Shown here piece after piece: positions 8,707 to 38,639 of a stretch of DNA of 64,000 nt. Source of the DNA: Acidobacteriota bacterium (lineage in GTDB: Bacteria > Acidobacteriota > Terriglobia > 20CM-2-55-15). The notes below the pieces were generated by a model, which saw nothing but the letters and a program-made list of their open reading frames with translations, was not told the origin of the DNA and did not search any database. Numbering within the stretch: position 1 is the first letter of the stretch; every line of letters begins with the position of its first letter. The stretch lies in contig QHWY01000105.1 in assembly GCA_003223875.1 (NCBI GenBank), forward strand, positions 9,441 to 73,440. Reading direction: 5' to 3'. The position numbers and the translations under genes were made by a program.

Positions 8707-9967
8707 GATCGCGACGCTTGCGCTGCTGTCGACTATGGTCGCAGCAACGGCTCTCACCCAAACCGCGAATGTTCAACGCGTCCTCATGGATGCCAAAGTT
8801 CAGGCCGCTCAGGAGTTTGTCGCAAAGGACCACGACCGTTTCGTGCGGGAGATTATCCAAATCACGGAGGTCGAAGCCCCGCCCTTCAAAGAAGCAAAGC
8901 GCGCCAAGCTATTCGCGGAAATGCTACGCCAGAGCGGGGTGAGCAATGTCGAAATCGATGCCGAAGGCAATGTCGTCGGCCTTCGCAAAGGGATCGGCGC
9001 CGGCCCGTTGATTGCTATCGCCGCTCATCTCGACACTGTATTTCCCGAAGGAATAAACGTCAAAGTTCGGCGCGAAGGAACCAAGCTCTACGCGCCCGGA
9101 GTTGGTGACGACTCGCGCGCGCTGGCCGTACTGCTGCAAATTGTCCGGGCAATGGATGCGGCGAAGATACAGACCGCAAGCGACATTCTCTTCATCGCGG
9201 ATGTGGGTGAAGAGGGCCCCGGAGATCTTCGAGGAATGAAGTACCTTTTCCAAAAAGGATCCTATAAAGACAAGATCAAAATGTTCATCTCTCTTGATCC
9301 CTTCGGATGGGGGAACGACATTACGACGGCGGGAATGGGCAGCAAACGGTTCAAAGTCATTTTCAAGGGACCCGGCGGGCACAGTTTTGGATCATTTGGT
9401 CTCGTCAGCCCGGCATACGCCCTCGGCAATGCGATAGCGAAACTCTCGAGGATGCAGGTACCGCAGAGGCCGAAAACCACCTTTAACGTGGGAGTGGTAG
9501 GCGGCGGGACTTCGGTGAACTCGATTCCTTTTGAATCTTGGATGGAAGTCGATATCCGTTCCGAAACGAAGGAAGAACTCAACAGGGCCGTTGAAAATTT
9601 CACGCACCTGATGCAAGAGGCCGCCGAAGAGGAAAATCGCGCGCGGTCGACATCGCAGGGAAAAATCGAAATCGACGTGAAGTTGATCGGAGACCGGCCG
9701 TTTGGCGAGGTATCCGAGAACGCTGCCATCGTCCAGACAGCCGAGGCGGTCATCCGGGCATTCGGAATGACTCCCACACTTGGCGTAAGTAGCACGGATG
9801 CCAACATACCCCTGAGCATGGGCATCCCGGCGATTACCCTGGAGTCCGGAGGCACGGGCTTACGAAATCACACGCTTGATGAATGGATCGATGTTGAAAA
9901 GACCCCGAGCGTGAGGGGAATTCACATCGATATGGGGGTCTTGCTGTCGCTCGCGGGAATAAATTAG
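8684..9967 (+). CDS. Secreted M20-family metallopeptidase/hydrolase
   Basis: Signal peptide; AHLDTVF, GVGDD, GEEG, GGHS, HT.DEW zinc-ligand motifs. Confidence 0.85.
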   Translation: MSSKIARRIATLALLSTMVAATALTQTANVQRVLMDAKVQAAQEFVAKDHDRFVREIIQITEVEAPPFKEAKRAKLFAEMLRQSGVSNVEIDAEGNVVGLRKGIGAGPLIAIAAHLDTVFPEGINVKVRREGTKLYAPGVGDDSRALAVLLQIVRAMDAAKIQTASDILFIADVGEEGPGDLRGMKYLFQKGSYKDKIKMFISLDPFGWGNDITTAGMGSKRFKVIFKGPGGHSFGSFGLVSPAYALGNAIAKLSRMQVPQRPKTTFNVGVVGGGTSVNSIPFESWMEVDIRSETKEELNRAVENFTHLMQEAAEEENRARSTSQGKIEIDVKLIGDRPFGEVSENAAIVQTAEAVIRAFGMTPTLGVSSTDANIPLSMGIPAITLESGGTGLRNHTLDEWIDVEKTPSVRGIHIDMGVLLSLAGIN

Positions 9968-10030
9968 CCACAAAAAGGCACAAAATTCACAAACACAAAT
10001 TTTTGTGATTTTTCTGCTTTTTCGTGGCCA
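9966..10030. repeat. Palindromic intergenic repeat (GCCACAAA family), possible bidirectional terminator
   Basis: gccacaaaaaggcacaaaa...tttttcgtggc between convergent genes; related copies at 35341-35525, 40750-40797, 54474-54562. Confidence 0.7.
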
Positions 10031-10031
10031 A

Positions 10032-12467
10032 TCATCCTACGACCAGATTCAGAATCCGGTTCTTCACGTATACCTTTTTCCGGATCTGCTTTCCGTCCAG
10101 GTATCGCGTGATGGCCGGATCGTTTTTCGCCGCTTCCAGCACGGATTCCTCCGGAGCTTCAGCTTTTACCAGAATCGTACCGCGGAGTTTTCCGTTGATC
10201 TGGACGGCCACCGTGACGGTATCCGCCCTCGTATAGCGCCCATCCCACTTCGGCCACTTCTGAAAGAAAATCGACGGTTGATGTCCTGTTCTCTGCCACA
10301 ACTCTTCGGCGAAATGAGGAGCGAATGGTGCAATCGCAACCAAGAACGCTTCGATCGTTTCTTTATCTGGCGGTTGGCTCATCGACGTCACTTCGTTTAC
10401 AAATTCCATAAATGAACTGACGATTGTATTCATACGGAAGGTTTCCAACCGCTCGGTCACGTTCTTGATGAGCAAGTGCCGCTGAGTCAGCATTTCTGTT
10501 GAAGGCGTCGCAGTCCAAGCGCCGTTGTGCATCAACACCCAATGCCAGGCTCGCTTCAGAAAACGGTGCACGCCTTCGATTCCGTTATTTCTCCATTCGG
10601 CATCCAATTCAGGCGGCCCCACGAAGAGCTCATACATGCGCAGCGCGTCGCAGCCGAAGTCGCGGACAAGATCATCCGGATTGACGACATTCCCCTTCGA
10701 CTTCGACATCTTTTCGGCCTTCCCGCTTTTGCCGACATAGGTGATCATCCCCTGGTTAAACAAGCGTAGGAATGGCTCATCAAAATCCACGACGCCGGCA
10801 TCGTGCAGAAACATCGTGAAGAACCGCGCGTACAGCAAATGTAAGATCGCGTGTTCGACACCGCCGACATAGAGATCCACCGGCAGCCATTTTTTGCCTT
10901 CTTTCGTGATGAGCGCGTCTTCGGCATGCGGTGACGCATAACGCAGGAAGTACCACGAAGAGCCGGCCCACTGCGGCATCGTATCGGTTTCCCGCTCGGC
11001 GGGGCCTCCGCAGTTTGGACATCGTGTGTTTACCCACTCCTTGATGGCCGCAAGCGGCGACTCGCCCGTGCCGGTCGGCTGATACTGCTCAACGTCGGGC
11101 AACCGCACCGGAAGATCTTCTTCAGGTACAGGAACCAGACCGCAGTTGATCGAGCAGTGGACAACCGGAATCGGTTCGCCCCAATATCGCTGTCGCGAAA
11201 AAACCCAATCGCGAAGTTTGTAGTTCACCGTAGCGCGGCCGAGCCCTTTCTCTTCCAGCCAGCGCACAATCGCCTTACGGCCTGGATTGGAGGGCATTCC
11301 GGTGAACTCGCCGGAATTCACCATTGTGCCTTCACCGATGTACGCCTCTTGCTCGATGCCTTCTTTGGACGAGACGACTTCGCGAATTTCCAATCCCAAC
11401 TTCTTTGCGAATTCGTAATCGCGCTCATCGTGCGCGGGGACGGCCATGATCGCGCCGGTACCATAAGCCATCAGGACGTAGTCCGCGATCCAGATCGGGA
11501 TTTTTTCGTTGTTGACCGGATTGATGGCGTATGCGCCGGTGAACACTCCCGTCTTCTCCGTCTTTGCGGCCCGATCCACATCGCGTTCGCTCTTCACCTT
11601 CTCGACGTATGCCTCGACCTCTGCCGCTTGCTGCTTAGACGTCACCTCGCTTACCAACGGATGTTCGGGGGCCATGACCATGTATGTCGCGCCGAACAGC
11701 GTGTCAGGACGAGTTGTGAAAATATTCAGCGGATGCTTGGCGCCATTCGCTGCGATGGCAGTAAAGGTCACCTCGGCGCCTTCGGACCGGCCGATCCAGT
11801 TGGTCTGCATGGTTTTGACTTTTTCGGGCCAGTGGAGTTTCTCAAGTCCGTTGAGCAAGCGATCGGCATATCGTGTGATGCGAAGCATCCATTGATTCAG
11901 TTCTTTCTTCGTAACCTCTGTACCGCAACGCTCACAGCGCCCATTGACGACATCTTCATTAGCGATGCCCGTCTTGCAGCTCGGACACCAGTTCACCGGC
12001 ATAAAGGTCTTGTAGGCGAGGCCCGCCTTGAACATTTTTACGAAAATCCATTGCGTCCACTTGTAGTATTCGGGATCGGTTGTATTGATCTCTCGCGACC
12101 AGTCGTACATGGCGCCGATTTCATGGAGCTGCCGCTTGAAATTTTCCACATTCCGCTTCGTGCCGAGTGCGGGGTGGATACCCTTCTGAATGGCATCGTT
12201 CTCGGCAGGAGACCCAAAGGCGTCCCAGCCCATCGGATGGAGAACCTTGTAGCCTTGCAGCCATTTGTATCGCGACCAGCAGTCTGGAAGGACGTAACTG
12301 CGCCAATGGCCCACGTGGAGTCCGGATCCGGACGGGTATGGAAACATGTCCAGACAGTAATACTTCGGCCTCGGATCCTCATCCCGTGCTTCGTGCAGTC
12401 TGTTGGAAATCCAGTATTCACGCCACTTTGGCTCAATCTCTCTATGTTTATAACTTTCGTCCGACAT
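10032..12467 (-). CDS. leuS: Leucine--tRNA ligase
   Basis: MFPYPSG.GLHVGH (HIGH), FTTRPDT editing domain, SRQRYWG, KMSKS. Confidence 0.97.
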   Translation of the reverse strand: MSDESYKHREIEPKWREYWISNRLHEARDEDPRPKYYCLDMFPYPSGSGLHVGHWRSYVLPDCWSRYKWLQGYKVLHPMGWDAFGSPAENDAIQKGIHPALGTKRNVENFKRQLHEIGAMYDWSREINTTDPEYYKWTQWIFVKMFKAGLAYKTFMPVNWCPSCKTGIANEDVVNGRCERCGTEVTKKELNQWMLRITRYADRLLNGLEKLHWPEKVKTMQTNWIGRSEGAEVTFTAIAANGAKHPLNIFTTRPDTLFGATYMVMAPEHPLVSEVTSKQQAAEVEAYVEKVKSERDVDRAAKTEKTGVFTGAYAINPVNNEKIPIWIADYVLMAYGTGAIMAVPAHDERDYEFAKKLGLEIREVVSSKEGIEQEAYIGEGTMVNSGEFTGMPSNPGRKAIVRWLEEKGLGRATVNYKLRDWVFSRQRYWGEPIPVVHCSINCGLVPVPEEDLPVRLPDVEQYQPTGTGESPLAAIKEWVNTRCPNCGGPAERETDTMPQWAGSSWYFLRYASPHAEDALITKEGKKWLPVDLYVGGVEHAILHLLYARFFTMFLHDAGVVDFDEPFLRLFNQGMITYVGKSGKAEKMSKSKGNVVNPDDLVRDFGCDALRMYELFVGPPELDAEWRNNGIEGVHRFLKRAWHWVLMHNGAWTATPSTEMLTQRHLLIKNVTERLETFRMNTIVSSFMEFVNEVTSMSQPPDKETIEAFLVAIAPFAPHFAEELWQRTGHQPSIFFQKWPKWDGRYTRADTVTVAVQINGKLRGTILVKAEAPEESVLEAAKNDPAITRYLDGKQIRKKVYVKNRILNLVVG

Positions 12468-12529
12468 GATCCGAGATTATAGCGTATCGGTTGGCCGTGC
12501 TTCTTCAGGCGGGGTTACAATACGGACCG

Positions 12530-12676
12530 ATGATTTTCATTGCTCGATTTACCAACAAGCCCGAAGCGGCGGCACTTCTCAGGCAGCACTATCCTGCGCA
12601 TGTTGAATGGCTGAAGCAGCACGATTCCGCCATTATCGTCGCGGGGACTATGGACCTTAGGAAATTTTCAAATTAG
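12530..12676 (+). pseudogene. Truncated YciI-family protein
   Basis: MIFIARFTNKP...LRQHYPAHVEWL...IIVAG resembles the YciI N-terminal half; stops at 48 aa. Confidence 0.55.
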
Positions 12677-12710
12677 GTTTACAATAGATGGGGTGTGAAA
12701 GGAGTCGTTT

Positions 12711-14075
12711 ATGACGAGACGAGTTCCTGCGTTGGTATTGGCTGCGGTGGTGGTGCCATTCGTAATGACGGCGAGCGCGGCTGCGGCCGAAGTGACTTTT
12801 TCTAAGGATATTGCCCCGATCTTTCAGGCGAAATGCCAGGAATGCCATCAGCCGAATTCGATCGCGCCAATGTCGCTGATCACCTATCAAGAAGCGCGGC
12901 CATGGGCGAAAGCGATTCGCGAGCGCGTGATCACGCGGCAGATGCCTCCTTGGCATATCGATCGCAGCGTTGGCGTGCAGAAGTTCAAGAATGATATGTC
13001 GCTGACCGACGAGCAGGTAGACAAGATCATAGGTTGGGTCGATGCCGGCGCGCCCGAAGGCAATCCGAAAGATCTGCCGCCGCCGAAGCCGCTTGTCACT
13101 GACAATGAGTGGAAAGGCGTCCGGGATGGTTACGGGCCGCCAGACCTCATCATCCGGTCCCCCGAATATGTCATGTCTGCCCAACACCAGGACGTGTGGT
13201 TCCGGACGATGTCCGACATTCCTCTCGCAGAGCCGCGCTGGGCAAAGATGGTTGAGATTCGTCCGACGAGTCTAAAGGGGCGGCGAACGCTTCATCATTC
13301 CGTTGCCTATCTGGTGCTGAACAACGATCCCGACGCCATCAACAAAGGCACCGCGAACGGGCCGGACCGTTTCCGCGACGGTGACGATCTTGTCAACCGC
13401 CGGCCGCAGTTGATGGAATGGGCCATCGGCAAAGGCTACGATCTGTTCCGGCCGGATACGGGCAGATTGTTGTTGCCGGGCGAAAAGATTGCCTGGGATC
13501 AGCACATTCATGCCGTTGGTGAGGAGATCGCCACAGGTTCGGAGATCGGTATTTGGCTCTACAAGAAAGGCGAGGAGCCGAAGAAGCGAAGCTATCTGAT
13601 TGCTTTCACGGGAATCCGAAACGGCCGATCTCTCGACATCCCACCGAACACGCTCGCGATGACGGAAGGCTTCACCGTGCTGAAGGAGAACGCGGTACTC
13701 GAGAACTTCCAGCCCCATTTCCACCTGCGCGGCAAATCGATGCAGGTCGAAGCGATTTTGCCCGACGGCAGCTCGCAAATCGTCAGCTACGTCGGCAACT
13801 TTAACTTCAACTGGATGACAAACTACATCTACGCTGACGATGCGGCTCCCGTGTTCCCGAAAGGAACCGTCATCCATGTGAGTGCCTGGTACGACAACAC
13901 GCGAGCGAACAAGAACAACCCCGATCCGGATCAGTGGGTCGGTTACGGCGACCGCACTGTCGATGAAATGGCTCACGCCTGGATCAATGTTGTCTATCTC
14001 AACGACCAGGAGTACAACGCACTACTCGCGGAACGTAAGACGAAAAACGCTAAAGAGACCGACGCGGGTAATTAG
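12711..14075 (+). CDS. Secreted c-type cytochrome fused to a copper type II (PHM/DBH-like) monooxygenase domain
   Basis: Signal peptide; CQECH and MPPW; LHH, HIH, PHFH, DEM copper-ligand pattern; AAGGAG SD. Confidence 0.8.
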   Translation: MTRRVPALVLAAVVVPFVMTASAAAAEVTFSKDIAPIFQAKCQECHQPNSIAPMSLITYQEARPWAKAIRERVITRQMPPWHIDRSVGVQKFKNDMSLTDEQVDKIIGWVDAGAPEGNPKDLPPPKPLVTDNEWKGVRDGYGPPDLIIRSPEYVMSAQHQDVWFRTMSDIPLAEPRWAKMVEIRPTSLKGRRTLHHSVAYLVLNNDPDAINKGTANGPDRFRDGDDLVNRRPQLMEWAIGKGYDLFRPDTGRLLLPGEKIAWDQHIHAVGEEIATGSEIGIWLYKKGEEPKKRSYLIAFTGIRNGRSLDIPPNTLAMTEGFTVLKENAVLENFQPHFHLRGKSMQVEAILPDGSSQIVSYVGNFNFNWMTNYIYADDAAPVFPKGTVIHVSAWYDNTRANKNNPDPDQWVGYGDRTVDEMAHAWINVVYLNDQEYNALLAERKTKNAKETDAGN

Positions 14076-14077
14076 CA

Positions 14078-14944
14078 GTGAGAAGGCTCGTTAGTCTGAG
14101 CGCCGCCGGCGTGATTGCCGGCGGCGTGCTGCTTTTAGGGCAACAGATTCCCGAGCCGCGGAAGCAGTTCGGCGCCGGCGTCACGGGTGCTTTCGAGGGC
14201 TGGTTCGACAACAAAGACAGCAGCCGCGGTTTCCTTGTCGGGTATTTCAATCGCAACACGCAACAAGAACTCGACATCCCGGTCGGGCCAAACAATCGAA
14301 TTGAACCCGGCGGGCCCGACATGGGGCAACCGACACATTTCCTTCCCGGCCGCCAATGGGGAATGTTCGCCATTCCCGTCCCGAAGGTTTTCACTCCACA
14401 AGACAAGTTCACATGGACGCTCTTCGTGAACGGCCAGACCACGGTCATTCCTCTTCGCCTGAATCCGGATTACGTCATCAGCCCGTTCAGTGAGATCGGG
14501 GCCGGCAACACGCCGCCTGTGATTGGCTTCGAGGAGAAAGCGCCAACGATTCAGGGTCCGATTGCCATGCTGGCTACGGCACCGCCGCGCACGGCGTCTT
14601 TGTCCACGCCTCTCGCATTGACGCTCTGGGTGACCGACGACATGAAGTACATCTCGGGCACCGGCACGCCGTCGCCATCGTCGCGGCCTCCGGTAACGCT
14701 CACCTGGTCGAAATATCGCGGGCCCGGCGCCGTGACGTTCGACAAAGCCACACCGACTGTTGAGAAGTTGCCGGCCGGAACCGACAACGCGGCCTTCACC
14801 GGGAAGGCAACCACGAATGTCAAGTTCAGCGAAGCCGGCGACTACGTGCTCCACGTCACCGTGAATGATTATTCAGGCGACGGAGGAGGAGGATTTCAGT
14901 GCTGCTGGACGACCGGACTCGTGAAAGTCTCGGTCAAGCCCTGA
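14078..14944 (+). CDS. Secreted uncharacterised protein with C-terminal Ig/PKD-like domain (partner of upstream gene)
   Basis: Signal peptide; 2-nt gap to upstream gene; paralog of 32842-33702 (GW..N.D, GY.NRN, QPTHF.P, WTL, YRG.G.V.F). Confidence 0.8.
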   Translation: MRRLVSLSAAGVIAGGVLLLGQQIPEPRKQFGAGVTGAFEGWFDNKDSSRGFLVGYFNRNTQQELDIPVGPNNRIEPGGPDMGQPTHFLPGRQWGMFAIPVPKVFTPQDKFTWTLFVNGQTTVIPLRLNPDYVISPFSEIGAGNTPPVIGFEEKAPTIQGPIAMLATAPPRTASLSTPLALTLWVTDDMKYISGTGTPSPSSRPPVTLTWSKYRGPGAVTFDKATPTVEKLPAGTDNAAFTGKATTNVKFSEAGDYVLHVTVNDYSGDGGGGFQCCWTTGLVKVSVKP

Positions 14945-15123: not shown

Positions 15124-15375
15124 ATGTTGTCCGGCTTCAGGGAGGCCCTTCTCAAACGATGTCGTCAATGGCAGGCCTTTCACGACTGGGAACGGAATCG
15201 GGCTGATACTGTTCTGACCATGGATGAGCGGGTAGCCTGGTACGTGGCTGCCTTCAATTTCGTGAGAAACTTGCCGCAGAAAGTGGTCATTGAAGACAAG
15301 AGCGAAAAAATCAAACAAGTCCGGAATTTACAGGCACGCCTGAGACATTTGAAGCTAAGCGATCGCGATGCCTGA
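15124..15375 (+). CDS. Small hypothetical protein, candidate antitoxin
   Basis: 83 aa; overlaps downstream nucleotidyltransferase start; TAACAT 6 nt upstream of ATG. Confidence 0.6.
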   Translation: MLSGFREALLKRCRQWQAFHDWERNRADTVLTMDERVAWYVAAFNFVRNLPQKVVIEDKSEKIKQVRNLQARLRHLKLSDRDA

Positions 15376-15931
15376 GCTGGATGATGCGCTCGTCGAGCTA
15401 AGCTCCTGGCTGACCGAAAACGAAATCCGCCATATGGTAATCGGCGGTTTTGCCGTGACTGTGTGGGGTGAACCGCGCTTTACGCGCGATTTGGATGTGA
15501 CAGTTTCCGTGCCCGCCGACAAATTCGGTCAGATAATTGATCGCATCTGTGCGCGATTCCCTTCTCTTTCGGGTGATCCTCTCAAATTCGTTACGGAAAC
15601 CCGAGTGCTACCGATCATGGTTGAAGCCGTCCCGGTCGATCTCATCTTTGCTGCCCTACCCTATGAAGAAGACGCGATTGCCCGAGCGCGTCCGATCCAT
15701 TTGAAGGATGCCAGTGTCCCGGTTTGTTCTCCTGAAGACCTGATCCTGCATAAGATCGTCTCGCCACGTCCCCGAGATCATGAAGACATCGAAGGTGTGT
15801 TTCGCTATCGGCATGCGGAACTGGATTATGGCTATTTGGACCCTCGAGTTGAGGAGCTTGCGGACGCGCTCAGTGACCGGAATATGCTCGATTGGTACCG
15901 GCGTCTACGCGAACGCTGGCGCAATCGATGA
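15368..15931 (+). CDS. Polymerase-beta-like nucleotidyltransferase (AbiEii/DUF6036-like)
   Basis: IGGFAV...PRFTRDLD, VDL, SPEDLILHK...RPRD.EDI. Confidence 0.8.
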   Translation: MPELDDALVELSSWLTENEIRHMVIGGFAVTVWGEPRFTRDLDVTVSVPADKFGQIIDRICARFPSLSGDPLKFVTETRVLPIMVEAVPVDLIFAALPYEEDAIARARPIHLKDASVPVCSPEDLILHKIVSPRPRDHEDIEGVFRYRHAELDYGYLDPRVEELADALSDRNMLDWYRRLRERWRNR

Positions 15932-15981: not shown

Positions 15982-16428
15982 TTATTTTTGTGGAGTTCTT
16001 TGGAGCGCGCGCTGCCGGCGCTCTTCCTCGATGGATTTGAGACGCTGAGGTCCTGCGGGTAGAAGCTCGGCGCCGTCTGCCCGAACGAGCTTGCGAAAGA
16101 ACATGCGTTGGGAACCCGTATGGGTGGGATTACCGGTTACCGTGATTCGCTCACCGGCTTTGACGGAGTCGGCGGTCCAGCCGACTTCGGAGAGATTCAG
16201 CCTGCCGGCGAACTCCACCGTCCACTTCGCGACCTTGCCGGCGTCATCGGTCACGTTCACAAACATCATGGCGTGCGGATTGACGAATCGGAACTCCGTC
16301 ACGACGCCCACGACCGTAATCAGCCGTTTCTCGTCATAGACCGGTGAAAAGGCATGGTGGGAACTCGCCGCCGCTGCTGACAGCATCAGCACAGGCATAA
16401 CGAATATGCACGCGCGCAGTAATCTCAC
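15982..16428 (-). CDS. DUF6152-like secreted protein
   Basis: Signal peptide followed by HHAF..YD, G.VTEF.F.NPH, W.VE, G..ITV.G.P. Confidence 0.75.
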   Translation of the reverse strand: MRLLRACIFVMPVLMLSAAAASSHHAFSPVYDEKRLITVVGVVTEFRFVNPHAMMFVNVTDDAGKVAKWTVEFAGRLNLSEVGWTADSVKAGERITVTGNPTHTGSQRMFFRKLVRADGAELLPAGPQRLKSIEEERRQRALQRTPQK

Positions 16429-17234
16429 GGCCTCACCCCCTTTTTGAATTCGGTCGGAGCCTGGCAGTTTTCATACGGCGTGATCTTACTTTCTGGGGCC
16501 CAGCGCCAGATCTTTTTGAGGACCACCGGTTCCCGGAAAGTCGGAGGATCCTCCATAGTCACCGTGAGCTGCAACGTGTTCCCCTCCTTCGAGCGCGTAT
16601 AGCGTTCCACGATGCGCAGTTGGTCGCTGTGGCGGGCCGTGGTGGCCAAGTCAGGCAAACCGGCTATATTCGCCGCGATACCGGAAGTCTCAACAATCAA
16701 AGTATCGCCGTCCCAGTGTCCTAGGGAATGCCCCATTGCGCTCGGCGGCTGGTTGACCGGGCGCTTGCGGCCGTCCAGATAGATGGTCCGCCGCGCATCC
16801 CATTCTCCATACCGGAATTCGAGCCGGTCACGGCCTACTTGCCGTATCTCGAACTGATGAGGCGCAATCATCTGCCGCGCAACGCCCCACGGCTCACAAC
16901 GAAGAAATCCCGGGTCATCTGCCGGATCAAGGGGAAAAGTCCTCAGCGCGGTCCCCGTTAGCCGCGAACGAAGGTATTCTCGCTCGTATTTCTTGGCTTC
17001 TGCTGCAAGTTCCTCGTACGGACGAGCGTCGTTGGCCGGATTGTCGAGCAAGGCATTCAGACGGTCGATTCCGGCGTCGGTGCAGGAGAACGAGCAAAAC
17101 GAACCTACGATGCTGGCAGGCGGGTCGCTCCACATGCCTTCCAACTTAGAGCGAGATTGGGATTGACCCGGTAAGGGAATGAACAGCAGTACAGGTAGGA
17201 CCATTAACAATTGAAGGAGATGGTCTCGCCTCAT
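16425..17234 (-). CDS. Secreted uncharacterised protein (DP..C.P.G / G.S.GHW.GDTL.VET family)
   Basis: ATG at 17234 after AAGGAG; signal peptide; stop overlaps the DUF6152-like start. Confidence 0.75.
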   Translation of the reverse strand: MRRDHLLQLLMVLPVLLFIPLPGQSQSRSKLEGMWSDPPASIVGSFCSFSCTDAGIDRLNALLDNPANDARPYEELAAEAKKYEREYLRSRLTGTALRTFPLDPADDPGFLRCEPWGVARQMIAPHQFEIRQVGRDRLEFRYGEWDARRTIYLDGRKRPVNQPPSAMGHSLGHWDGDTLIVETSGIAANIAGLPDLATTARHSDQLRIVERYTRSKEGNTLQLTVTMEDPPTFREPVVLKKIWRWAPESKITPYENCQAPTEFKKGVRP

Positions 17235-17260
17235 CGCACACTCCTTTCGGATGAATTGCA

Positions 17261-19309
17261 TTACCAAACCTTACAGATCTGATCTGCGAGCTTCACCATC
17301 GGCTGTCCCGGTTTGCACGAGAATGCCTTGGCGAACTCCGGCATGTTCACCACCACGCCGTTGATGCGGTATTTTGCCGGCGAATGCGGATCCGTGATGG
17401 CGCGAAGACGGAGGTCCTCCGGACGCTCGTTCGTGCATGCCCACTGGGCAAAGCCGACGAAGAATCGCTGATCGGGAATGAGGCCATCGATGGGATTAAG
17501 CTGCTTCTCTTTCGTCGCATCTTTCCATGCAACATAAGCAAGGATCTCGCCACCCAGATCCGCCACATCTTCACCTAACGTGAGCTTACTGTTAATGTGC
17601 ACGTCGTCAACGACAACATACTTAGCGTACTGATCTTCAACACATTGCGTTCTTGCCTCGAACTTCTCCCGATCGGTTTTCGTCCACCAGTTTTTCAGGT
17701 TGCCTTTCGCGTCGAACTGGCTGCCCTCATCATCGAAACCGTGCGTGAGTTCGTGGCCGATGGTTCCGCCGGTGTCGCCATAGTTGGGCGCGTCGTCGAG
17801 TTTCGCGTCGAACAGCGGTGGCTGAAGCACGCCGGCAGGAAAGTTGATGTCGTTCATTTGAGGGTCATAATAGGCATTCACCGTCGGCGGTGTCATGTGC
17901 CATTCCCCTCGATCGACCGGCTTGCCGACTTTATTGATCTGCCGGCGCCGTTCGAATTCCGAAGCGCGCGCGATGTTTCCTCGAAAATCATCGCGCGTGA
18001 TGCGAATTGAACTGTAATCGCGCCACTTCTCCGGATGACCGATTTTGTTTCGGATGCCGGCCAACTTTTCAAGAGCCTGTTGTTTCGTTTCCGGGCTCAT
18101 CCAGTCGAGATCCCGGATGCGTTTGCTCATTGCATCTTCAATGCGCCGCACCATATCGAGCGTGCGCGCCTCTGCCTCGGGGCCGAATGTTTTTCGGACG
18201 TAGATCTGCCCCAAGGCTTCGCCAAGATTGCCGTCCGTGTATTGCACACACCGTTTCCAGCGAGGCTGCATGTCTTCGACTCCCCGGAGGTACTTGCGGT
18301 AGAAGTCGAAATTCTCCTGTACGAATTTGGACGACAGGTGCGATGACGCCGAATCCACGACGTGATATCGAAGGTATGTCTTCCAGTTTGCGAGCGAGCT
18401 GCGTTCCAATTGCGCATTCATCTCGCGGAAGAAATCCGGAGGCGCCACATTGACGATTTCGAAACTGGGATATCGCAGTTCTTTGTAGTAAAGCGGCCAG
18501 TCAAAGTTCGGCGCCAGCTTCGACAATTCCGCTATCTTTATCTTATGTTTCAACTTGTATGGATCGCGCCGATCGACTCGAGTCATGGAAGCCTTTGCCA
18601 GCAGCGTTTCCAGACTCATGACGACTTCCGCGTTCTTTTTCGCCGTTTCGGCACCGTCTCCCATCAACTCGAAGAGGCGCTGCACATGCTGCAGGTAGCG
18701 CGTACGGATCTCTTTGGATTTATCGTCGTCTTTGGCGTAGTAGTCGCGGTCCGGCAGACCTAGGCCGCCTTGATCGAGCTCCGCAATCTGCTGCTCAGAG
18801 TCATCCGGATCCTGAGTTGAGCCCTGGCGGAAGAGAATCGCGCTTCCATAGGTCAGTTGGAGACGGCCGATAAACCGCGCTAATTGCCGGACTGATCGGA
18901 GCCTGCTGATCGCGTTCAGGTCTGCTTCCAGAGGAATCAGACCGCGTTTTTCGACCGTCAGCTCATCCATGCACGCACTATAGAAGTCACCGATCTCTCG
19001 CGTCACTTCATCGCGGGTCGTCTGGGACGAAGCCGCCGCCTGTTCCAAGATGCTGCGCAGATATTTCAAATTGTCTTCATAGAGTTTTCCATACACGTCC
19101 CACCTCGTTTGATCCGGCGGAATCGGATTGTTCTTTTGCCATCCACCGCAGGCGTACTTATAGAAGTCCACACAAGCATCGACGGACTTATCCATCGCGC
19201 TGAGGTCCAGGCTTGGGGTATATGGGAACGCGGGATCTTGGCTCTCGGCAAAGGAGCAGAGGAGCAGGATGAACAAACAAGCGAATAGGGCGGTTCGTTT
19301 GGTCACCAC
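17261..19309 (-). CDS. M13-family zinc metalloendopeptidase (neprilysin/PepO-like)
   Basis: Signal peptide; C.DFY.YACGGW, VNAYY, GHELTHGFD, GEDVADLGG, DPHSP. Confidence 0.95.
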   Translation of the reverse strand: MVTKRTALFACLFILLLCSFAESQDPAFPYTPSLDLSAMDKSVDACVDFYKYACGGWQKNNPIPPDQTRWDVYGKLYEDNLKYLRSILEQAAASSQTTRDEVTREIGDFYSACMDELTVEKRGLIPLEADLNAISRLRSVRQLARFIGRLQLTYGSAILFRQGSTQDPDDSEQQIAELDQGGLGLPDRDYYAKDDDKSKEIRTRYLQHVQRLFELMGDGAETAKKNAEVVMSLETLLAKASMTRVDRRDPYKLKHKIKIAELSKLAPNFDWPLYYKELRYPSFEIVNVAPPDFFREMNAQLERSSLANWKTYLRYHVVDSASSHLSSKFVQENFDFYRKYLRGVEDMQPRWKRCVQYTDGNLGEALGQIYVRKTFGPEAEARTLDMVRRIEDAMSKRIRDLDWMSPETKQQALEKLAGIRNKIGHPEKWRDYSSIRITRDDFRGNIARASEFERRRQINKVGKPVDRGEWHMTPPTVNAYYDPQMNDINFPAGVLQPPLFDAKLDDAPNYGDTGGTIGHELTHGFDDEGSQFDAKGNLKNWWTKTDREKFEARTQCVEDQYAKYVVVDDVHINSKLTLGEDVADLGGEILAYVAWKDATKEKQLNPIDGLIPDQRFFVGFAQWACTNERPEDLRLRAITDPHSPAKYRINGVVVNMPEFAKAFSCKPGQPMVKLADQICKVW

Positions 19310-30119: not shown

Positions 30120-31690
30120 GTAATTTCTATTTAGCGATGGCCCTCATTCTTCCGCCCGAGCGTAAACATTTCTACCAGTTTCCTGCGATCGATCACTGGA
30201 ACAGCCTTTACAAGCTAACCGCTTTTGATATTTTCATCCTGATCCCATATCTCACGATCCTGACCATTCTCGCCATTTATGGTATTCACCGATATCATCT
30301 GGTGTTTCTTTACTTGAAACACAAGGATAAGACTGCGCACCCCCATGCAAAGCTGGAAATAAAACCGCGAGTCACGATACAGCTTCCGATTTACAACGAA
30401 ATGTACGTTGTGGAACGGCTTGTCGAGGCAGCTTGCAATGTGGGTTATCCGCGCGAGCTTCTGGAGATCCAGGTTTTGGACGACTCTACCGATCGCACCG
30501 TCGAAATTGCTGCTGCCTGCGTGGAGAAATATCGCGAGAGTGGGTTCAATATTCAGTACGTTCACCGGGCCAATCGCAAAGGTTTCAAAGCCGGCGCTCT
30601 CGAAAATGGTTTGAACCTAGCGACAGGTGAATTGGTCGCCATCTTCGATGCGGATTTCATTCCTGCGCCGAACTTCCTGGAAGACGTTGTCGATTATTTC
30701 AGCGATCCGCAGGTCGGAATGGTTCAGGTGCGTTGGGGCCATATCAATCGCGAATATTCTTTGCTGACGCAAGTGGAGTCTGTAATTCTCGATGGCCACT
30801 TCATCATCGAACACGGCGGACGGCATTTCTCCGGGCGGTTCTTCAATTTCAACGGCACGGCAGGCATTTGGCGGCGCACCGCAATTGAAAGCGCTGGAGG
30901 ATGGCAACACGATACGCTGACTGAAGACACCGATCTCAGCTATCGCGCCCAAATGGCCGGATGGCAGTTCCTTTACCTGCCTCACATCGTTTGTCCAGCC
31001 GAGCTTCCGGTTGAGATGAATTCGTTCAAGAGCCAGCAGGCTCGATGGGCGAAAGGACTGATTCAGACCGCCATCAAATTGCTTCCGCGAATTCTCCGAA
31101 GCGAGCTGCCGTGGAAAATCAAGATCGAGGCCTTCTTCCATCTCACGGCCAACATTGCGTACCCCCTGATGATTGCGCTCTCTTTTTTGCTACTGCCCGC
31201 GATGATCGTGAGGTTCAATCAGGGTTGGTTCCAGATGCTTTATATCGATCTACCTCTATGGCTGGCTTCGACGGCTTCGGTTTCGACCTTTTATTTGATT
31301 TCGCAAAAGGAACTCTATCCGGATTGGAGAGTCCGTCTGCGCTACCTGCCGTTCCTGATGACGGTCGGAATTGGACTGTCGGTCAGTAACTCGAAGGCCG
31401 TAATGGAAGCGCTCTTAGGCATCAAGAGCAGTTTCAAGCGCACACCCAAATACCGAATCGAGAGTAGGAAAGACCGGTGGGCCACGAAGAAATATCTCCG
31501 GCGAACCGGTGTCATGCCTCTATTCGAATTGAGTCTCGGCGCGTATTTCGCGCTCGTGGTTTTCTACGCGTTCGTGAATCAGAACTATCCCACCATCCCC
31601 TTCTTGATGTTGTTTGTTGTCGGTTTTACCTACATGGGGCTCATGTCAATCGTGCACATGACGCTGCACCGATGGTTAAAAAACATATAG
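30116..31690 (+). CDS. GT2 membrane glycosyltransferase (cellulose-synthase-like)
   Basis: QLPIYNE, LDDSTD, GFKAGAL, FDADF, TEDTD, QQARW (QxxRW); C-terminal TM helices. Confidence 0.9.
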   Translation: MSNFYLAMALILPPERKHFYQFPAIDHWNSLYKLTAFDIFILIPYLTILTILAIYGIHRYHLVFLYLKHKDKTAHPHAKLEIKPRVTIQLPIYNEMYVVERLVEAACNVGYPRELLEIQVLDDSTDRTVEIAAACVEKYRESGFNIQYVHRANRKGFKAGALENGLNLATGELVAIFDADFIPAPNFLEDVVDYFSDPQVGMVQVRWGHINREYSLLTQVESVILDGHFIIEHGGRHFSGRFFNFNGTAGIWRRTAIESAGGWQHDTLTEDTDLSYRAQMAGWQFLYLPHIVCPAELPVEMNSFKSQQARWAKGLIQTAIKLLPRILRSELPWKIKIEAFFHLTANIAYPLMIALSFLLLPAMIVRFNQGWFQMLYIDLPLWLASTASVSTFYLISQKELYPDWRVRLRYLPFLMTVGIGLSVSNSKAVMEALLGIKSSFKRTPKYRIESRKDRWATKKYLRRTGVMPLFELSLGAYFALVVFYAFVNQNYPTIPFLMLFVVGFTYMGLMSIVHMTLHRWLKNI

Positions 31691-32838
31691 CCGCGGTTTG
31701 CTTATTTCTCGCCCTCACGCCACTCCTTGCAACTGAAAAGGAACCGCTGGGAGAATACAAATCCCGCCGGGAGCGGCTGGCGGCGCGGATCAAGGGCAAT
31801 GCGCTCGTCCTTCGCGCGGCTCCGGAACAAGAGCTGGTGAAGTACCAACAAGAACGAAATTTTTACTATCTCACCGGATTCGATCAGCCCGGAGCGATTT
31901 TGCTGCTGGATGCGAGCTCGGATCCGCCGCAGGAATTTTTCTTTTTGCCCGAACGGAACTCCGCCGCGGAACGTTGGACGGGACCCAAACTTGGTCCCGG
32001 TGCAGACGTGGAAAAGATAACCGGCTTTGCGAGAGTTCTCTCGACATCCGATTTTGACACGACGCTCAAGCGAGCTTCAGAAGGAGCGAAAGCCGTATAT
32101 GGTTTGAAGGACGTTGAGAGCGATATCGCTTATCTGCGGCAAACCAAATCGCCCACAGAAATCGCCCTGTTGGAAAAAGCCGTTCAGATAACATTGAAGG
32201 CACATCAAGCTGCGGCCCGTACAATTGCCCCGGGCGCGATGGAATACGAGGTCCAGGCCGCGCTGGAATACGAATTCACGCGCAATGGTGCGGAGCGACC
32301 CGGTTATCCCTCCATCGTGGGCTCCGGACTGTTTTCGACAATCCTTCACTACAACGTCAACACGCGACGCATGCAAGCAGGCGACGTGGTTGTGGTTGAT
32401 GTCGGTGCCGAATATAGCGGGTACAGTGCGGATGTGACGCGTACGTACCCGGTCTCCGGAAAGTACTCCCCACGCCAACGCGAGATCTACCAAATCGTGC
32501 TCGATGCCCAAAAGGCGGCAATCGCAAAAGTCAAACCCGGCGCGCGGATCAGCGACCTGCACAATGCCGCCATGTCGCACATTCGATCAAAGGGCTACGA
32601 AAAGTATTTCATTCACGGAACCAGTCACCACATTGGACTCGAAGTCCACGACGTTGGCGATACATCTCGTCCTTTCGAACCGAACATGGTGATCACCGTC
32701 GAGCCCGGCATTTATATCCCCGAAGAACAACTCGGCATCCGAATCGAAGACGACGTGGTCGTCACAACGAACGGTCATCGAGTTCTCTCTGACTTTCCGA
32801 AGGAAATATCTGAAATCGAGAGCCTGTTTAAGAGATAG
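31672..32838 (+). CDS. Secreted Xaa-Pro aminopeptidase (M24B)
   Basis: Signal peptide; ILHY, DVGAE, ADVTRT, HGTSHHIGLEVHD, TVEPGIY, RIEDD. Confidence 0.9.
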   Translation: MVKKHIAAVCLFLALTPLLATEKEPLGEYKSRRERLAARIKGNALVLRAAPEQELVKYQQERNFYYLTGFDQPGAILLLDASSDPPQEFFFLPERNSAAERWTGPKLGPGADVEKITGFARVLSTSDFDTTLKRASEGAKAVYGLKDVESDIAYLRQTKSPTEIALLEKAVQITLKAHQAAARTIAPGAMEYEVQAALEYEFTRNGAERPGYPSIVGSGLFSTILHYNVNTRRMQAGDVVVVDVGAEYSGYSADVTRTYPVSGKYSPRQREIYQIVLDAQKAAIAKVKPGARISDLHNAAMSHIRSKGYEKYFIHGTSHHIGLEVHDVGDTSRPFEPNMVITVEPGIYIPEEQLGIRIEDDVVVTTNGHRVLSDFPKEISEIESLFKR

Positions 32839-32841
32839 GGC

Positions 32842-33702
32842 TTAGTTCCGAGGATTGACCGTGACGTCGACGTCGAAGGGACCAGCCAACTGGCCGTCAC
32901 TGGCAAGAGCTCGAAGACGGTAATTGCCCGGCGCGCCGAACGTTACTTTGGTTTGCATGGTCACGGGTTTTCCGTAACTGCGCTCGCTCATGATATCAGG
33001 CTCAAAGCGAACTCTGCCTGAACCGCGGTAAACGATCCATCGGATGCGCACACCTTGTTGGCGGCCCGGGGCGGTGATCGGCTTCGGCCGGCCGTCATCG
33101 GTGGCGGTGACGGTCAATGTCAGGGGATCACCCAGCTTGATTGTCTGGGCTGGGCTTCCTGTCATCGTGGGAGCCACGTTGTCGAAGTCAACGTCACCAA
33201 GTCCGGTGGTCATCAACATCGCATCGCGCGGAGAATTTTTGGAAATGATTCCTTGATCGACTTCCCATTCCGGCTCGAGCCAGGCTTTGGCTTGATTCGT
33301 ATGGCCACGGTTCGTCAGCGTCCAGACGAGCCTTTTATCTTTCGGCCAATCTTTGGGTACGACGACACCCAACACCCACCATCGCGGCGACGGGTAAAAA
33401 TGTGTAGGCTGGCCCTGATCGATGTTATCCGTATCGAACTTGTTATCCGGACCAATCGGGATGTCGACCTCTTCTTCCGAATTCCTGTTGTAATACCCGA
33501 AGTAAAACGTGTAGGTCCCATCCGGATTCATTTTCCAGCCGTCGAATGTCGGACTCACATCCTGCCCACGCGCGTATTTGATCTGATATTGTCCAAACAG
33601 GCTGGAGACCAAGAGGATAAAAAAACAGAACGACACGATCCCGATAAGGACACTTCTTTTGGTGTAGCGGCGGTCGTAGAAGCTGTGAACGAATTGACCC
33701 AT
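32842..33702 (-). CDS. Secreted uncharacterised protein with Ig/PKD-like C-terminus (paralog of 14078-14944)
   Basis: Hydrophobic N-terminus; FDGW..NPDG, FGYYNRN, GQPTHFYP, VWTL, TDDG, YRGSG.VRF. Confidence 0.8.
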   Translation of the reverse strand: MGQFVHSFYDRRYTKRSVLIGIVSFCFFILLVSSLFGQYQIKYARGQDVSPTFDGWKMNPDGTYTFYFGYYNRNSEEEVDIPIGPDNKFDTDNIDQGQPTHFYPSPRWWVLGVVVPKDWPKDKRLVWTLTNRGHTNQAKAWLEPEWEVDQGIISKNSPRDAMLMTTGLGDVDFDNVAPTMTGSPAQTIKLGDPLTLTVTATDDGRPKPITAPGRQQGVRIRWIVYRGSGRVRFEPDIMSERSYGKPVTMQTKVTFGAPGNYRLRALASDGQLAGPFDVDVTVNPRN

Positions 33703-33912: not shown

Positions 33913-35235
33913 TCATTCCCGCGAACTGGTCAGGATCCGCTGTGCTGCTTTTCTCTCTTCAACCTCTTTTTTGTAATCCGGTTCGGGCATGTAGTACCAA
34001 CTGATCCAGGCGGAACCCATTTCGTCCACCGTTCGTTGTCCCCATGTGATCTGCGCATCAGGATCCGGGTTGAACTTGTTCGCGGCTGTGTTGTCATGCC
34101 ACGAGATCGAATGCAGAACAGTCCCTTGCGGCAGCAGAGGCGCGGCGTCATCGCGGTAGACGTAGTTGATATGCCAATTGAAGTAGAACTTCGCGCAGGA
34201 CAGCATTTCTACTTTGCCGTTCGGATAGATTGCTTCCAGGCACTCTGCTTTTCCGCGGTTGTGCATATGAGGTTGGAACGATAGGAGCCGCGCGGGTTTC
34301 ACGAGTGTGAGATAGCCGTCGGAGCGCACGTTGTCCGTATTGGGGCGAAGGTCGATCTCTGCCACGCTCACGGTTGTGGAGGAGATCACGTGTTTCGGGA
34401 CATAACCCTTCGGATAAAACTTCAGACCGAGAGCAACATTGGTTGGTGTCTCCGTACCGACCGCATGGAGGTGCAATTGGAAGTTAATTTTCGTTCCTGC
34501 CTTGATCAACCGGCCCGATCCTTCTGGAAAGATGTCGCCTTTCTTGCCAATCGCGTACTCGTTGAGGAAGATTCCCTGCTCGCCCACCTCAAGGGTTCCA
34601 TCGGTATCGTCGAGTTTGCCGCTGTTGCGGGTCTCAGATGCGGGCTCAACAACTGAGGTTCTGATATGGTGGATCACCGGGAATCCCTTGACGGGAATGA
34701 TCTGGACACCTTTTATGTAGCGGTCTTCTGTCAAACCGGGGTCGACCAGGATATCTGGCCATTGATCGGGCGCCTTCGCCTTTACAATGACGTCCTTCGG
34801 AAGCGTGATGACGCGATCCGGTTCTCCGATCTGCCACGTTTCGTTGTCATTGAACTTAGGCGCCGGGGGCATATCACCCGGATTGCCTCGAACTGCTCCG
34901 CCGTCGACCCACTTCACGATCGTCGCGATTTGATCATCAGTTAAAGAAATGTCGTTGCTGAAGTACTGCACGCCAACGTTCTTGTCGAGGTGCCAGGGCG
35001 GCATCTCTCGCATGAGAACTTTTTCCTTGATCGATCTGGCCCATGGCCTGGCTTCCTCATATGTCATCAATGACATCGGTGCAAACGTGCCGGGGTGGTG
35101 GCATATCTGACAGCGCGCCTGAAAGATCGGCGCCACGTCCTTTGTAAAGGTAACCTGGCTCTGCGCCGATTGCGCGCTCGCAGACACCGCGATCAACAAC
35201 GTCACAAGCAGAACGGATATAGAAATCGTTCTCAT
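33913..35235 (-). CDS. Secreted c-type cytochrome fused to a copper type II (PHM/DBH-like) monooxygenase domain (paralog of 12711-14075)
   Basis: Signal peptide; CQICH and MPPW; IHH, HLH, PHMH, DEM; GGAGGT SD. Confidence 0.8.
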   Translation of the reverse strand: MRTISISVLLVTLLIAVSASAQSAQSQVTFTKDVAPIFQARCQICHHPGTFAPMSLMTYEEARPWARSIKEKVLMREMPPWHLDKNVGVQYFSNDISLTDDQIATIVKWVDGGAVRGNPGDMPPAPKFNDNETWQIGEPDRVITLPKDVIVKAKAPDQWPDILVDPGLTEDRYIKGVQIIPVKGFPVIHHIRTSVVEPASETRNSGKLDDTDGTLEVGEQGIFLNEYAIGKKGDIFPEGSGRLIKAGTKINFQLHLHAVGTETPTNVALGLKFYPKGYVPKHVISSTTVSVAEIDLRPNTDNVRSDGYLTLVKPARLLSFQPHMHNRGKAECLEAIYPNGKVEMLSCAKFYFNWHINYVYRDDAAPLLPQGTVLHSISWHDNTAANKFNPDPDAQITWGQRTVDEMGSAWISWYYMPEPDYKKEVEERKAAQRILTSSRE

Positions 35236-35340
35236 GCCTACCTCCGAGAGAGGTCCTTGGGTATTTTGTCAGTCTTCCTCCTGTTCTTATATCCAACGTT
35301 CCTGTTATATGCAAATTGTTTCGGAACCGGCAAAAAGGAA

Positions 35341-35525
35341 TAGCCACAAAGAGGGCTTTGCACAAAAAATCCTGGGCGGTAATAGACCGCCCCTACAGCT
35401 TGGGGTGCGCAACTGTAGGGGCGCTCTATGAGCGCCCGCGATGTATTTTTTGTGCAAAGCCCACAAAGAGGCACAAAAATCACAAGGTATTCCCATTCTT
35501 GTGTTTTTTGTGCCTTTTTGTGGCC
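35341..35525. repeat. GCCACAAA-family palindrome interrupted by a MITE
   Basis: gccacaaagag[insert]gcacaaaaatcacaag...cttgtgttttttgtgcctttttgtggc. Confidence 0.75.
35354..35461. mobile_element. 108-bp MITE, copy 1
   Basis: 16-bp TIR ggctttgcacaaaaaa; 9-bp target duplication cacaaagag (35345-35353 / 35462-35470); second copy at 56815. Confidence 0.9.
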
Positions 35526-35579
35526 AATAATTCTTTCGTTGATGTAAATTGCTTTTCACCACTTCTCGAGGACAGAAAC

Positions 35580-37238: not shown

Positions 37239-37830
37239 AGATGTAGAAGCCGGAGAACACAAGGCGAGCATTGCGGTCTGGGAGCTCGTCTCTCCTCTGG
37301 TGATCGGCCGCACAACGAAAATTAAAGTGGGAGCGAAGTGCTCGGCCGGCTGTCAACTCACGGATCATGAAATCTCGATCCACGACGCTGCCGGCCAAGT
37401 GATCGCCCGCGCCGGTTTTGGTGCTACAGCTTGGCCGGGCACGAGCGGTCTCTATTGGGTGGACATCGAATTCCGCGCTCCCACGGAAGCCGGCACTCAT
37501 ACGTTTTCGGTCGAGTGCGAACACGGCGAGGCTTACTCCGAATTTAGCTTCATCACCGTCGAACCGCCCGAACACAGCCTGACAATCCAGATCTACGACA
37601 AGGCCACAAAAGAACCCATCCCTGAAGTGGAAATCCGGCTCGGTGTCTATCGAAGCATCAGCAATGAACGAGGCCTTGCGAGAATAGATGCGCCGAAAGG
37701 CAGCTACACCCTCACTGCTTGGAAGCTTGGATACGACCTCTTTTCAACCGAGCTCAATATCACCAGTACAGTCGCGATTGAGGTTGAAATCGCCGTTGAG
37801 CCTGAGCCCGCGCAGCCCTACTGGATGTAA
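37228..37830 (+). CDS. Hypothetical beta-rich protein with carboxypeptidase-regulatory-like C-terminal domain
   Basis: Start overlaps the flavoprotein stop; D..T.EPI...S.ERG....PKGSYTLTAWKLGY pattern; CSAGC. Confidence 0.65.
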   Translation: MPPEDVEAGEHKASIAVWELVSPLVIGRTTKIKVGAKCSAGCQLTDHEISIHDAAGQVIARAGFGATAWPGTSGLYWVDIEFRAPTEAGTHTFSVECEHGEAYSEFSFITVEPPEHSLTIQIYDKATKEPIPEVEIRLGVYRSISNERGLARIDAPKGSYTLTAWKLGYDLFSTELNITSTVAIEVEIAVEPEPAQPYWM

Positions 37831-38639
37831 ACCGCGTTCGGCCGTTCGTTCAGCTCGATGTAAGTTCCCCACGGATCGTAAATGAACGCGAGCGCGCCGC
37901 CGGTCTGCGGATTCCTCGTCAACGGACGATCGAGCTTGATGCCCGCTGCTTCGAGCTTTTTGCAGAACGCCTCGAGGTTCTGAACATCGAAGCCGATGTG
38001 ATCGAGAATGCGGCCCCTGGTCGTGACAGCCGGGCCGTCGGCTTTGGAAAACGTCAGGTTCACGCCGGGAAGATCGGCAGCCTGATTCTGTCCCCGCGTC
38101 CCGGGTTTCGCGCCAAACGTCTTTGCGTACCACGCCTGGATTTGCGGTATGACCGACTCGGGCACGTTGAAGTGGACGTGATGATGCTGGATCGGGAACT
38201 TCTGGTCCTTGTTTTCCAAGATCTCAATGCGCAATTCGTCGCCTGTCACTACAAACGCCTGATCGGTTCTGCCGTTGCCGCCGGGAAGGACCGGCACGCC
38301 CGCAGCTTTCCAAGCTTTGACGGATTCCTGGACGTTTTTCACAGTGAATCCGACATGGTTCACAATTGAACCCACGGTGCCGCCTTTCGGCGGTGGCGTC
38401 CCCGCTGCCTGGTGCAAAATCACGAGCACGCCGGGGAACCGCACGGTTTCAAAGTTTCCGCCTTTGACTTCGGTGCCGCCCATCGCAAGAAAGATCTTCT
38501 TATTTGCGGCGACATCCCGGCTATTGAGATGCCAATGGCCCATAGTCACACCGGCTTCATTTGGCGGGAATGCCTGTGCCCACGCGGTGCCGGCGGAAAA
38601 ACTCAAAATGAGACACAAAACTAGGATCAGTCTTTTCAT
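37818..38639 (-). CDS. Secreted tandem VOC/glyoxalase-family protein
   Basis: Signal peptide; GHWHL, NHVGF, HHVHF, DHIGF, DPWGTYIELNE. Confidence 0.85.
   Translation of the reverse strand: MKRLILVLCLILSFSAGTAWAQAFPPNEAGVTMGHWHLNSRDVAANKKIFLAMGGTEVKGGNFETVRFPGVLVILHQAAGTPPPKGGTVGSIVNHVGFTVKNVQESVKAWKAAGVPVLPGGNGRTDQAFVVTGDELRIEILENKDQKFPIQHHHVHFNVPESVIPQIQAWYAKTFGAKPGTRGQNQAADLPGVNLTFSKADGPAVTTRGRILDHIGFDVQNLEAFCKKLEAAGIKLDRPLTRNPQTGGALAFIYDPWGTYIELNERPNAVYIQ

Follow-up and report, generated by a model that had tools for sequence, protein, structure and literature searches.

A cytochrome c-fused homologue of the PHM/DBH copper monooxygenases and its co-inherited partner protein in an acidobacterial genome

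Here, we describe two gene pairs on a 64,000-nt stretch of DNA from a soil member of the Acidobacteriota (assembly GCA_003223875.1, contig QHWY01000105.1, positions 9,441 to 73,440 of the forward strand; this whole stretch is called the window below). The first gene of each pair (A) encodes a protein that, as judged from structure models and sequence profiles, is a remote but true homologue of the catalytic core of peptidylglycine alpha-hydroxylating monooxygenase (PHM) and dopamine beta-hydroxylase (DBH), with a mono-haem cytochrome c domain at its N-terminus. The second gene (B) encodes a predicted exported partner. The A-B pair is a real, uncharacterised variant of the PHM/DBH enzyme kind. 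Computational analysis established the fold and homology of A, the conservation of its ligand residues, its haem motif, the export signals, the co-inheritance of A with B, and a predicted interface between the two proteins. The homology of A to PHM and DBH follows from the ranking of Foldseek matches, the profile matches, and the Pfam matches of family members. The two pairs and their parts are listed below, where CuH and CuM denote the two copper sites of PHM and DBH.

12711-14075, forward strand: A1, predicted exported fusion of a cytochrome c and a PHM/DBH-like copper monooxygenase, 454 amino acids (aa); open reading frame (ORF), AF2 model, Foldseek and profile matches
12711-12788, forward strand: export signal of A1, residues 1-26; hydrophobic N-terminus of low pLDDT, putative cleavage after an Ala run
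12789-13085, forward strand: putative haem c domain of A1, about residues 27-125; CxxCH (C42, C45, H46) and an MPPW motif with M78; weak Pfam cytochrome c match
13128-14003, forward strand: predicted two-domain copper core of A1, about residues 140-431; candidate CuH ligands H195, H196, and H265; candidate CuM ligands H336, H338, and M420
14078-14944, forward strand: B1, predicted exported partner, 288 aa; N-terminal beta-sandwich (about residues 33-150) and PKD-like C-terminal domain with a GGGGFQCCW insert
33913-35235, reverse strand: A2, paralogue of A1, 440 aa; same motif set as A1
32842-33702, reverse strand: B2, paralogue of B1; likely ATG at 33702, longest ORF to 33780; lacks the CC insert

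B1 starts 2 nt past the stop codon of A1, and an AGGAG-type ribosome-binding site lies 7 nt upstream of the A1 ATG. The A2-B2 gap is 132-210 nt, depending on the B2 start chosen. Scans for terminators and promoters returned sites no more numerous than in shuffled sequences. As read from the sequence, the N-termini of A1 and B1 are hydrophobic export signals with putative cleavage sites. The original prediction, made from the letters of the DNA, had named a set of motifs for 12711-14944 (CQECH, MPPW, HH, two HxH, and EM), and all of them were located in A1: CQECH at residue 42, MPPW at 78, HH at 195-196, HIH at 265-267, HFH at 336-338, and DEM at 418-420. It had also described a secreted partner 2 nt behind A1 with an Ig-like end and a vicinal CC, which agrees with the ORF coordinates and with the B1 sequence: the C-terminal end is a PKD/Ig-like domain, and the vicinal CC lies inside its insert. 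The reported recurrence of the pair at 35235-32842 was borne out, with 43% identity between A1 and A2 (E 1e-117) and 32% between B1 and B2 (E 7e-33). The two gene pairs are old, paralogous copies.

The AF2 model of A1, built on the family alignment, has a mean pLDDT of 88.4 and a pTM of 0.85 and contains the two-domain beta-sandwich core that characterises the PHM/DBH class (PF01082 plus PF03712). When this model was compared with the PDB by Foldseek, the 27 top-listed entries were all PHM or DBH (E 1e-12 to 1.9e-9), with approximately 300 aligned columns and TM scores on the target of 0.52-0.66; the next matches, at 6e-6 and weaker, were viral double jelly-roll capsids and glycanases. The PHM entries (PDB 1phm, 1opm, 1sdw, and 3mll; PHM is the catalytic core of PAM) share the two beta-sandwich domains with A over about 300 columns at E 1e-12 and a TM score of about 0.6, and DBH (4zel) is matched at E 1.3e-11. 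The family profile of A matches DBH 4zel at E 3.4e-10, the best profile match, in an alignment that reaches the second domain, and PHM at E 5.5e-9. The vHH, vHY, and HxHxxGK blocks of the A family are in register with those of both enzymes, and a conserved Met follows later in the second domain. The PHM-like fold of the original prediction was thus recovered by structure and profile comparison alike, with HH, H, and HxH in register.

The family alignment comprises A1, A2, and 44 full-length representatives (46 members), which are 28-48% identical to A1. In single Pfam scans of these members at E<=1, Cu2_monoox_C (PF03712) was found in 25 of 46, with a best E value of 1.2e-6, and Cu2_monooxygen (PF01082) in 11 of 46. 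The NCBIfam scan of A gave nothing useful. C42, C45, H46, M78, H195, H265, and H336 are invariant in all 46 members, whereas H196, H338, G341, and M420 are conserved in 90% or more. The candidate CuH ligands H195, H196, and H265 line up with the PHM/DBH blocks vHH and vHY, and each of the 21 full-length paralogues of the source genome has them; H336, H338, G341, and K342 fall on the HtHxxGk block in the profile alignment.

The N-terminal part of A carries the CxxCH haem attachment motif of c-type cytochromes, in a protein with a predicted export signal. Cytochrome_CBB3 (PF13442) was detected at E<=1 in 44 of the 46 members scanned singly, and the Haem_bd and PccH models of Pfam gave weak scores at the N-terminus. 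By profile, the CxxCH block matches PccH (4rlr, E 0.0018) and the hydrazine synthase alpha subunit (5c2v, E 0.0004), and a phmmer search of the PDB with A1 returned the CxxCH block against PccH, weakly, as its sole match. M78 is the likely sixth haem ligand, given its invariance. The haem electron-entry domain claimed for A1, a CxxCH site with a candidate axial Met, is therefore consistent with residues that are invariant in 46 sequences.

The genome from which the window comes (6.58 Mb in 489 contigs, 93% complete) holds a large set of A paralogues: the A profile gave 26 six-frame matches, and 25 ORFs match at E<=1e-5, 21 of which are at least 400 aa long. All 21 full-length paralogues keep CxxCH, M78, and the five His ligands. 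M420 is present in 20 of the 21, that is, in 20 of the 20 long enough to include this residue; the remaining one ends at a contig end before the Met. Some paralogues carry further sequence. One of 663 aa, in a stretch of another contig (5565-7556 of that stretch, forward strand), has TPR repeats fused at its C-terminus, and another on a separate contig (3-2690) is at least 895 aa long. The search of representatives also returned A relatives of 650-1251 aa in which the A part lies at the C-terminal end.

Beyond this genome, 7,936 of 8,000 scored candidates match the A family at E<=0.001, and 14,495 clusters at 50% identity match A1 at this threshold, 8,442 at 1e-10 and 1,633 at 1e-30. The close relatives are from Acidobacteria and are labelled "hypothetical protein" or "mono/diheme cytochrome c family protein". 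Among 301 sampled genomes of the phylum, a match to A at E<=1e-30 was found in 70 and a match to B at E<=1e-10 in 35, part of the latter through the PKD portion only; both counts take in the source genome and one unpublished genome that entered the analysis only here.

The B family is similar in size to the A family (7,163 of 8,000 scored candidates match), and all of its members are unnamed. Pfam has no family for the N-terminal domain in any of 33 B sequences, NCBIfam has no match to B, and DOMON matches B neither in Pfam nor in the PDB. The C-terminal domain resembles PKD and K319L-like PKD domains, a likeness that the N-terminal domain does not share: Pfam PKD was found at E<=1 in 18 of the 33 sequences, although in B1 it scores below the cut-off (E 0.048), and K319L-like_PKD in one at 4.4e-7. 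The B profile cross-matches PKD repeats in large proteins of the source genome; extra matches in five such proteins were shown by domain coordinates and Pfam to cover PKD repeats only and were excluded from the B count. The AF2 model of B (pLDDT 84.9, pTM 0.82) is all-beta and consists of two sandwiches. Foldseek retrieved only generic tandem-Ig proteins from the PDB (best E 1.9e-5, TM about 0.25), and a search of the Atlas returned only uncharacterised or PKD clusters, with no named cluster for the N-domain.

Twelve residues are invariant in the 33 B sequences (G41, D47, G55, Y56, N58, N60, G70, N73, Q84, F88, P102, and W113), and no His, Cys, or Met is invariant or near-invariant among them, which argues against a metal-binding or chaperone role. 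In five genomes of one genus, B is a short protein of 163-194 aa that still adjoins A and consists of the N-domain alone, which marks this domain as the essential part. The B proteins of the source genome fall into two sub-types that differ in the presence of the Gly-rich CC insert, and these track the sub-clades of A.

A and B are inherited together. The strict B family of the source genome has nine genes, and each of the nine directly follows a same-strand A gene, at a distance of -187 to +156 nt as measured between the longest ORFs. In a tree of the source-genome paralogues, the eight full-length B-linked A genes form one split with a support of 100/100, and A1 and A2 fall in different sub-clades of it. 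The identity matrices of A and B for the nine pairs are strongly correlated (Mantel r 0.90; 0 of 5000 permutations as high), and nearest neighbours agree in eight of nine pairs. These parallel identities indicate that the pair duplicated and diverged as a unit. In 29 other genomes, A adjoins the best B locus in all 29, on the same strand in 28; A precedes B in 10 of them, B precedes A in 18, and the two genes converge in one. The gene neighbourhoods thus bear out a partner co-conserved with A, in the source genome and elsewhere. The obligate partner of the original prediction stands in part: B is co-conserved with one clade of A, whereas 13 full-length A paralogues of the source genome have no B within 3 kb.

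Transcript data concern the A1-B1 pair. Four soil metatranscriptome runs of one study contain 32-38% of the sampled words, against a fraction of 0.05-0.06 in two other RNA runs. Metatranscriptome contigs cover much of A1 at 95-100% identity, and three of them span the A1/B1 junction (13913-14112, 13905-14112, and 13936-14280), which weakly supports co-transcription of the two genes.

A complex of A1 (residues 27-445) and B1 (residues 22-288) was also modelled. The score was 0.81 (0.81, 0.81, and 0.83 in three runs), and the best of three controls scored 0.00. In the calibration, 58 of 80 solved complexes scored as high as 0.81, compared with 2 of 110 mismatched pairs; because the input used our own alignments, these counts are a rough guide. 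At least 61% of the contacts were common to the runs, and the partner pLDDT was at least 81. The predicted interface has 90-113 contacts and involves residues 158-164, 306-312, and 404-418 of A (segment 404-418 is the loop that runs up to the DEM motif) and residues 28, 36-39, 57-61, 91-92, 122-135, 141, and 271-274 of B. Two clade-specific features within the A segments favour this interface: R415 is found in eight of eight B-linked paralogues and in 1 of 12 without B, and V or I at 417 in eight of eight and 0 of 12, respectively. The model supports the binding of A1 to B1 but does not show it, and to this extent the complex prediction for the cognate pair agrees with a dedicated partner.

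We propose that A1-B1 and A2-B2 are each a periplasmic two-subunit haem-copper oxygenase in which B acts as a specificity or presentation subunit on the CuM domain, and we regard this as reasonably probable. From the results above, we infer the metal content, the electron path, the oxygenase chemistry, and the role of B as follows. A would be exported through the Sec route and bind a c-type haem covalently at CxxCH. It would hold two mononuclear copper sites, CuH (H195, H196, and H265) and CuM (H336, H338, and M420). The haem would draw single electrons from the periplasmic respiratory chain, replacing the ascorbate or cytochrome b561 supply of the animal enzymes, and the electrons would pass from the haem to the copper sites. 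O2 would be activated at CuM, and a C-H bond of the bound substrate would be hydroxylated. B would be a non-metal subunit whose N-terminal beta-sandwich docks on the CuM domain at the loops just ahead of the Met ligand. Most likely, B would shape the substrate site, gate it, or present the substrate there.

Several observations weigh against this proposal. The homology of A to PHM and DBH is detectable solely by profile or fold; A1 lies beyond the range of curated models, and the Pfam copper-monooxygenase models match neither A1 nor A2 alone at E<=1. The cytochrome c scores of A1 are also under the gathering cut-offs (20.4 bits against 27 for PF13442 and 19.6 against 21.3 for PF00034). The local profile alignments end ahead of the Met, and M420 is equated with the CuM Met of PHM by conservation and position only. 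Two positions ahead of the first CuM His, PHM has an Arg, whereas the consensus of the A family has a Gln. As for the partner, the 13 paralogues without B imply that the basic chemistry can proceed in its absence. The idea that the conserved motifs of B form the interface was unsupported, as the mean top-residue frequency is 0.50 at the interface and 0.62 in the rest of the N-domain. Finally, the RNA contigs come from one study, and RNA libraries can hold DNA.

Other explanations were considered. A may be a redox protein on a PHM scaffold and not a C-H hydroxylase, working as an oxidase, in peroxide or superoxide handling, or as an electron-transfer module whose acceptor is O2 or a different small molecule. 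The fused haem would provide its electron route, nothing points to an organic substrate, and no conserved substrate-related gene stands beside the pair (none in more than 4 of 22 stretches, by a rough count). However, the family retains the complete set of PHM/DBH ligands, the CuM Met among them, and the roughly 21 divergent paralogues of this one genome are easier to reconcile with many substrates than with a single small-molecule reaction; we consider this explanation unlikely. Somewhat less likely still is that B is not a subunit but a protein substrate or carrier modified by A, for example by hydroxylation or cross-linking of a residue. An enzyme and its substrate could also show such strict co-inheritance and parallel divergence, and one B sub-type has a Gly-rich vicinal-Cys insert with residues 271-274 in the predicted interface. 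This insert is missing from B2 and its sub-type, though, the five short B forms lack the whole C-terminal domain, and the large predicted interface is made by strands of the folded B N-domain, not by a flexible tail.

We think it very unlikely that A is a true bacterial peptidylglycine alpha-hydroxylating enzyme for peptide amidation, even though PHM is its best structural match. The Arg ahead of the CuM HxH in PHM is presumably the anchor of the substrate carboxylate, and A probably does not bind a peptide substrate by its C-terminal glycine as PHM does, because this Arg is replaced by Gln in the A family; Q334 is invariant in a nine-sequence A alignment, so the Arg taken as the mark of peptidylglycine specificity is absent. 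Moreover, DBH scores equal to PHM, and no lyase-like partner is conserved beside the pair. Peptidase genes can be counted in favour of amidation: an M24 peptidase (31477-32838, forward strand) is convergent with B2, and an M13 peptidase lies 2.3 kb from B1. In two genomes that belong to another family, a homologue of the M24 gene (at 10472-11800, reverse strand, of one such stretch) immediately precedes a B-A pair and is accompanied by homologues of MutS2 and DnaG. Such neighbours are few, however, and the M24 gene near A2-B2 sits in a housekeeping block with mutS2, dnaG, and rpoD, so its presence beside the pair may simply reflect old synteny around the A2-B2 copy. The least probable explanation, in our estimate, is that B delivers copper to A as a chaperone or helps in its assembly. 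B is adjacent to A, co-inherited with it, and predicted to be exported, and dedicated chaperones are common for periplasmic copper enzymes. Against this, the conserved residues of B include no candidate metal ligand, its fold is two Ig-like sandwiches without a specific PDB relative, and the A paralogues that lack B keep all copper ligands. Of the roles that the original prediction had offered for the partner, copper loading is disfavoured by the absence of an invariant His, Cys, or Met, and a second, PAL-like catalytic step finds no support in two Ig-like sandwiches.

To look for further genes of the system, we surveyed 22 stretches, each about 20 kb long; 20 of them were taken from other genomes and two from the window. 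Apart from A, B, and an antisense shadow ORF, no family recurs in more than 4 of the 22, in a survey that is rough in that a crude ORF filter lost A in seven stretches and B in five to shadow ORFs. The recurrent genes that the window has in common with the other stretches encode the housekeeping proteins MutS2 and DnaG and an M24 peptidase. Downstream of B1, a small ORF (15124-15375, forward strand) overlaps a nucleotidyltransferase gene of the AbiEii/DUF6036 type (15368-15931, forward strand). This ORF pair, between B1 and a convergent DUF6152 gene, is likely a type IV toxin-antitoxin system. The DUF6152 gene (15982-16428, reverse strand; E 2.4e-23) follows a gene for a 280-aa protein with predicted export and no Pfam family (16425-17267, reverse strand). 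Their families have 72 and 140 phmmer matches, respectively, in the 6.6-Mb genome, often as adjacent pairs, which is a very large expansion. Relatives of both recur near A genes, a nearness that is not specific, as most matches lie far from A; the two genes were therefore rejected as members of the module. The gene for the M13 (neprilysin-like) metallopeptidase of 682 aa (17261-19309, reverse strand) shares 7 nt with the start of the 280-aa gene, which probably makes them a single operon. Divergent from A2 is a gene for a 640-aa FAD_binding_2 flavoprotein with a Tat-like N-terminus (35316-37238, forward strand), and a predicted exported protein of the glyoxalase/dioxygenase superfamily is encoded at 37818-38639 (reverse strand). 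No link of these two genes to the pair was seen in the other genomes.

As a weak lead, a TonB-dependent receptor or a relative is encoded 64-409 nt upstream of three A genes of the source genome, on three contigs and in each case on the same strand; one of these receptor genes lies at 9801-12956 of the stretch that also holds the 663-aa paralogue. A receptor checked by Pfam has the CarboxypepD_reg, Plug, and beta-barrel domains, and the source genome has 78 such genes; as roughly estimated by hand, chance would give about 0.3 such adjacencies, against the three seen. A CarboxypepD_reg protein family occurs in 4 of the 20 foreign stretches, with one member checked by Pfam.

PHM and DBH are non-coupled two-copper monooxygenases in which the long-range electron transfer between CuH and CuM is debated. 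In animals, DBH makes noradrenaline and PHM makes amidated peptide hormones, and to our knowledge both enzymes are known almost only from animals. A shares 9-13% sequence identity with PHM. Compared with PHM, A has an additional N-terminal c-type haem domain, a predicted bacterial periplasmic setting, and a separate subunit, and no ascorbate system is implied for it. DBH, whose relatives are tyramine beta-monooxygenase and MOXD1, carries in one chain a DOMON domain at the N-terminus and a dimerisation domain at the C-terminus, whereas A has a fused cytochrome c and the separate two-sandwich B. The haem domain of A weakly resembles PccH and the Haem_bd mono-haem cytochromes, with scores of A1 below the curated cut-offs, but in A it is joined to a copper-enzyme core. 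Four features set A and B apart from PHM and DBH: the attached cytochrome c, the second, non-metal subunit, the predicted periplasmic location in bacteria, and the size of the paralogue sets. A full-text literature search, with subscription journals mostly outside its coverage, turned up no publication on a bacterial fusion of cytochrome c with a PHM/DBH core.

More tentatively, A and B may represent a new class of periplasmic haem-copper C-H hydroxylase that is wired to the respiratory chain and in which the Ig-like B sets the specificity. The paralogues (about 21 A genes and nine A-B pairs) might then be a substrate-diversified toolkit that oxidises soil organics, some of them imported by the TonB-dependent transporters encoded upstream of three A genes. 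The A family is very large, yet its members are labelled only "hypothetical" or "cytochrome c". If the proposed system is correct, its built-in haem donor would offer a self-contained system for studying two-copper monooxygenase chemistry, and the dedicated partner subunit would be an undescribed way to tune such enzymes. It could also indicate an unrecognised oxidative activity in the abundant Acidobacteria of soil.

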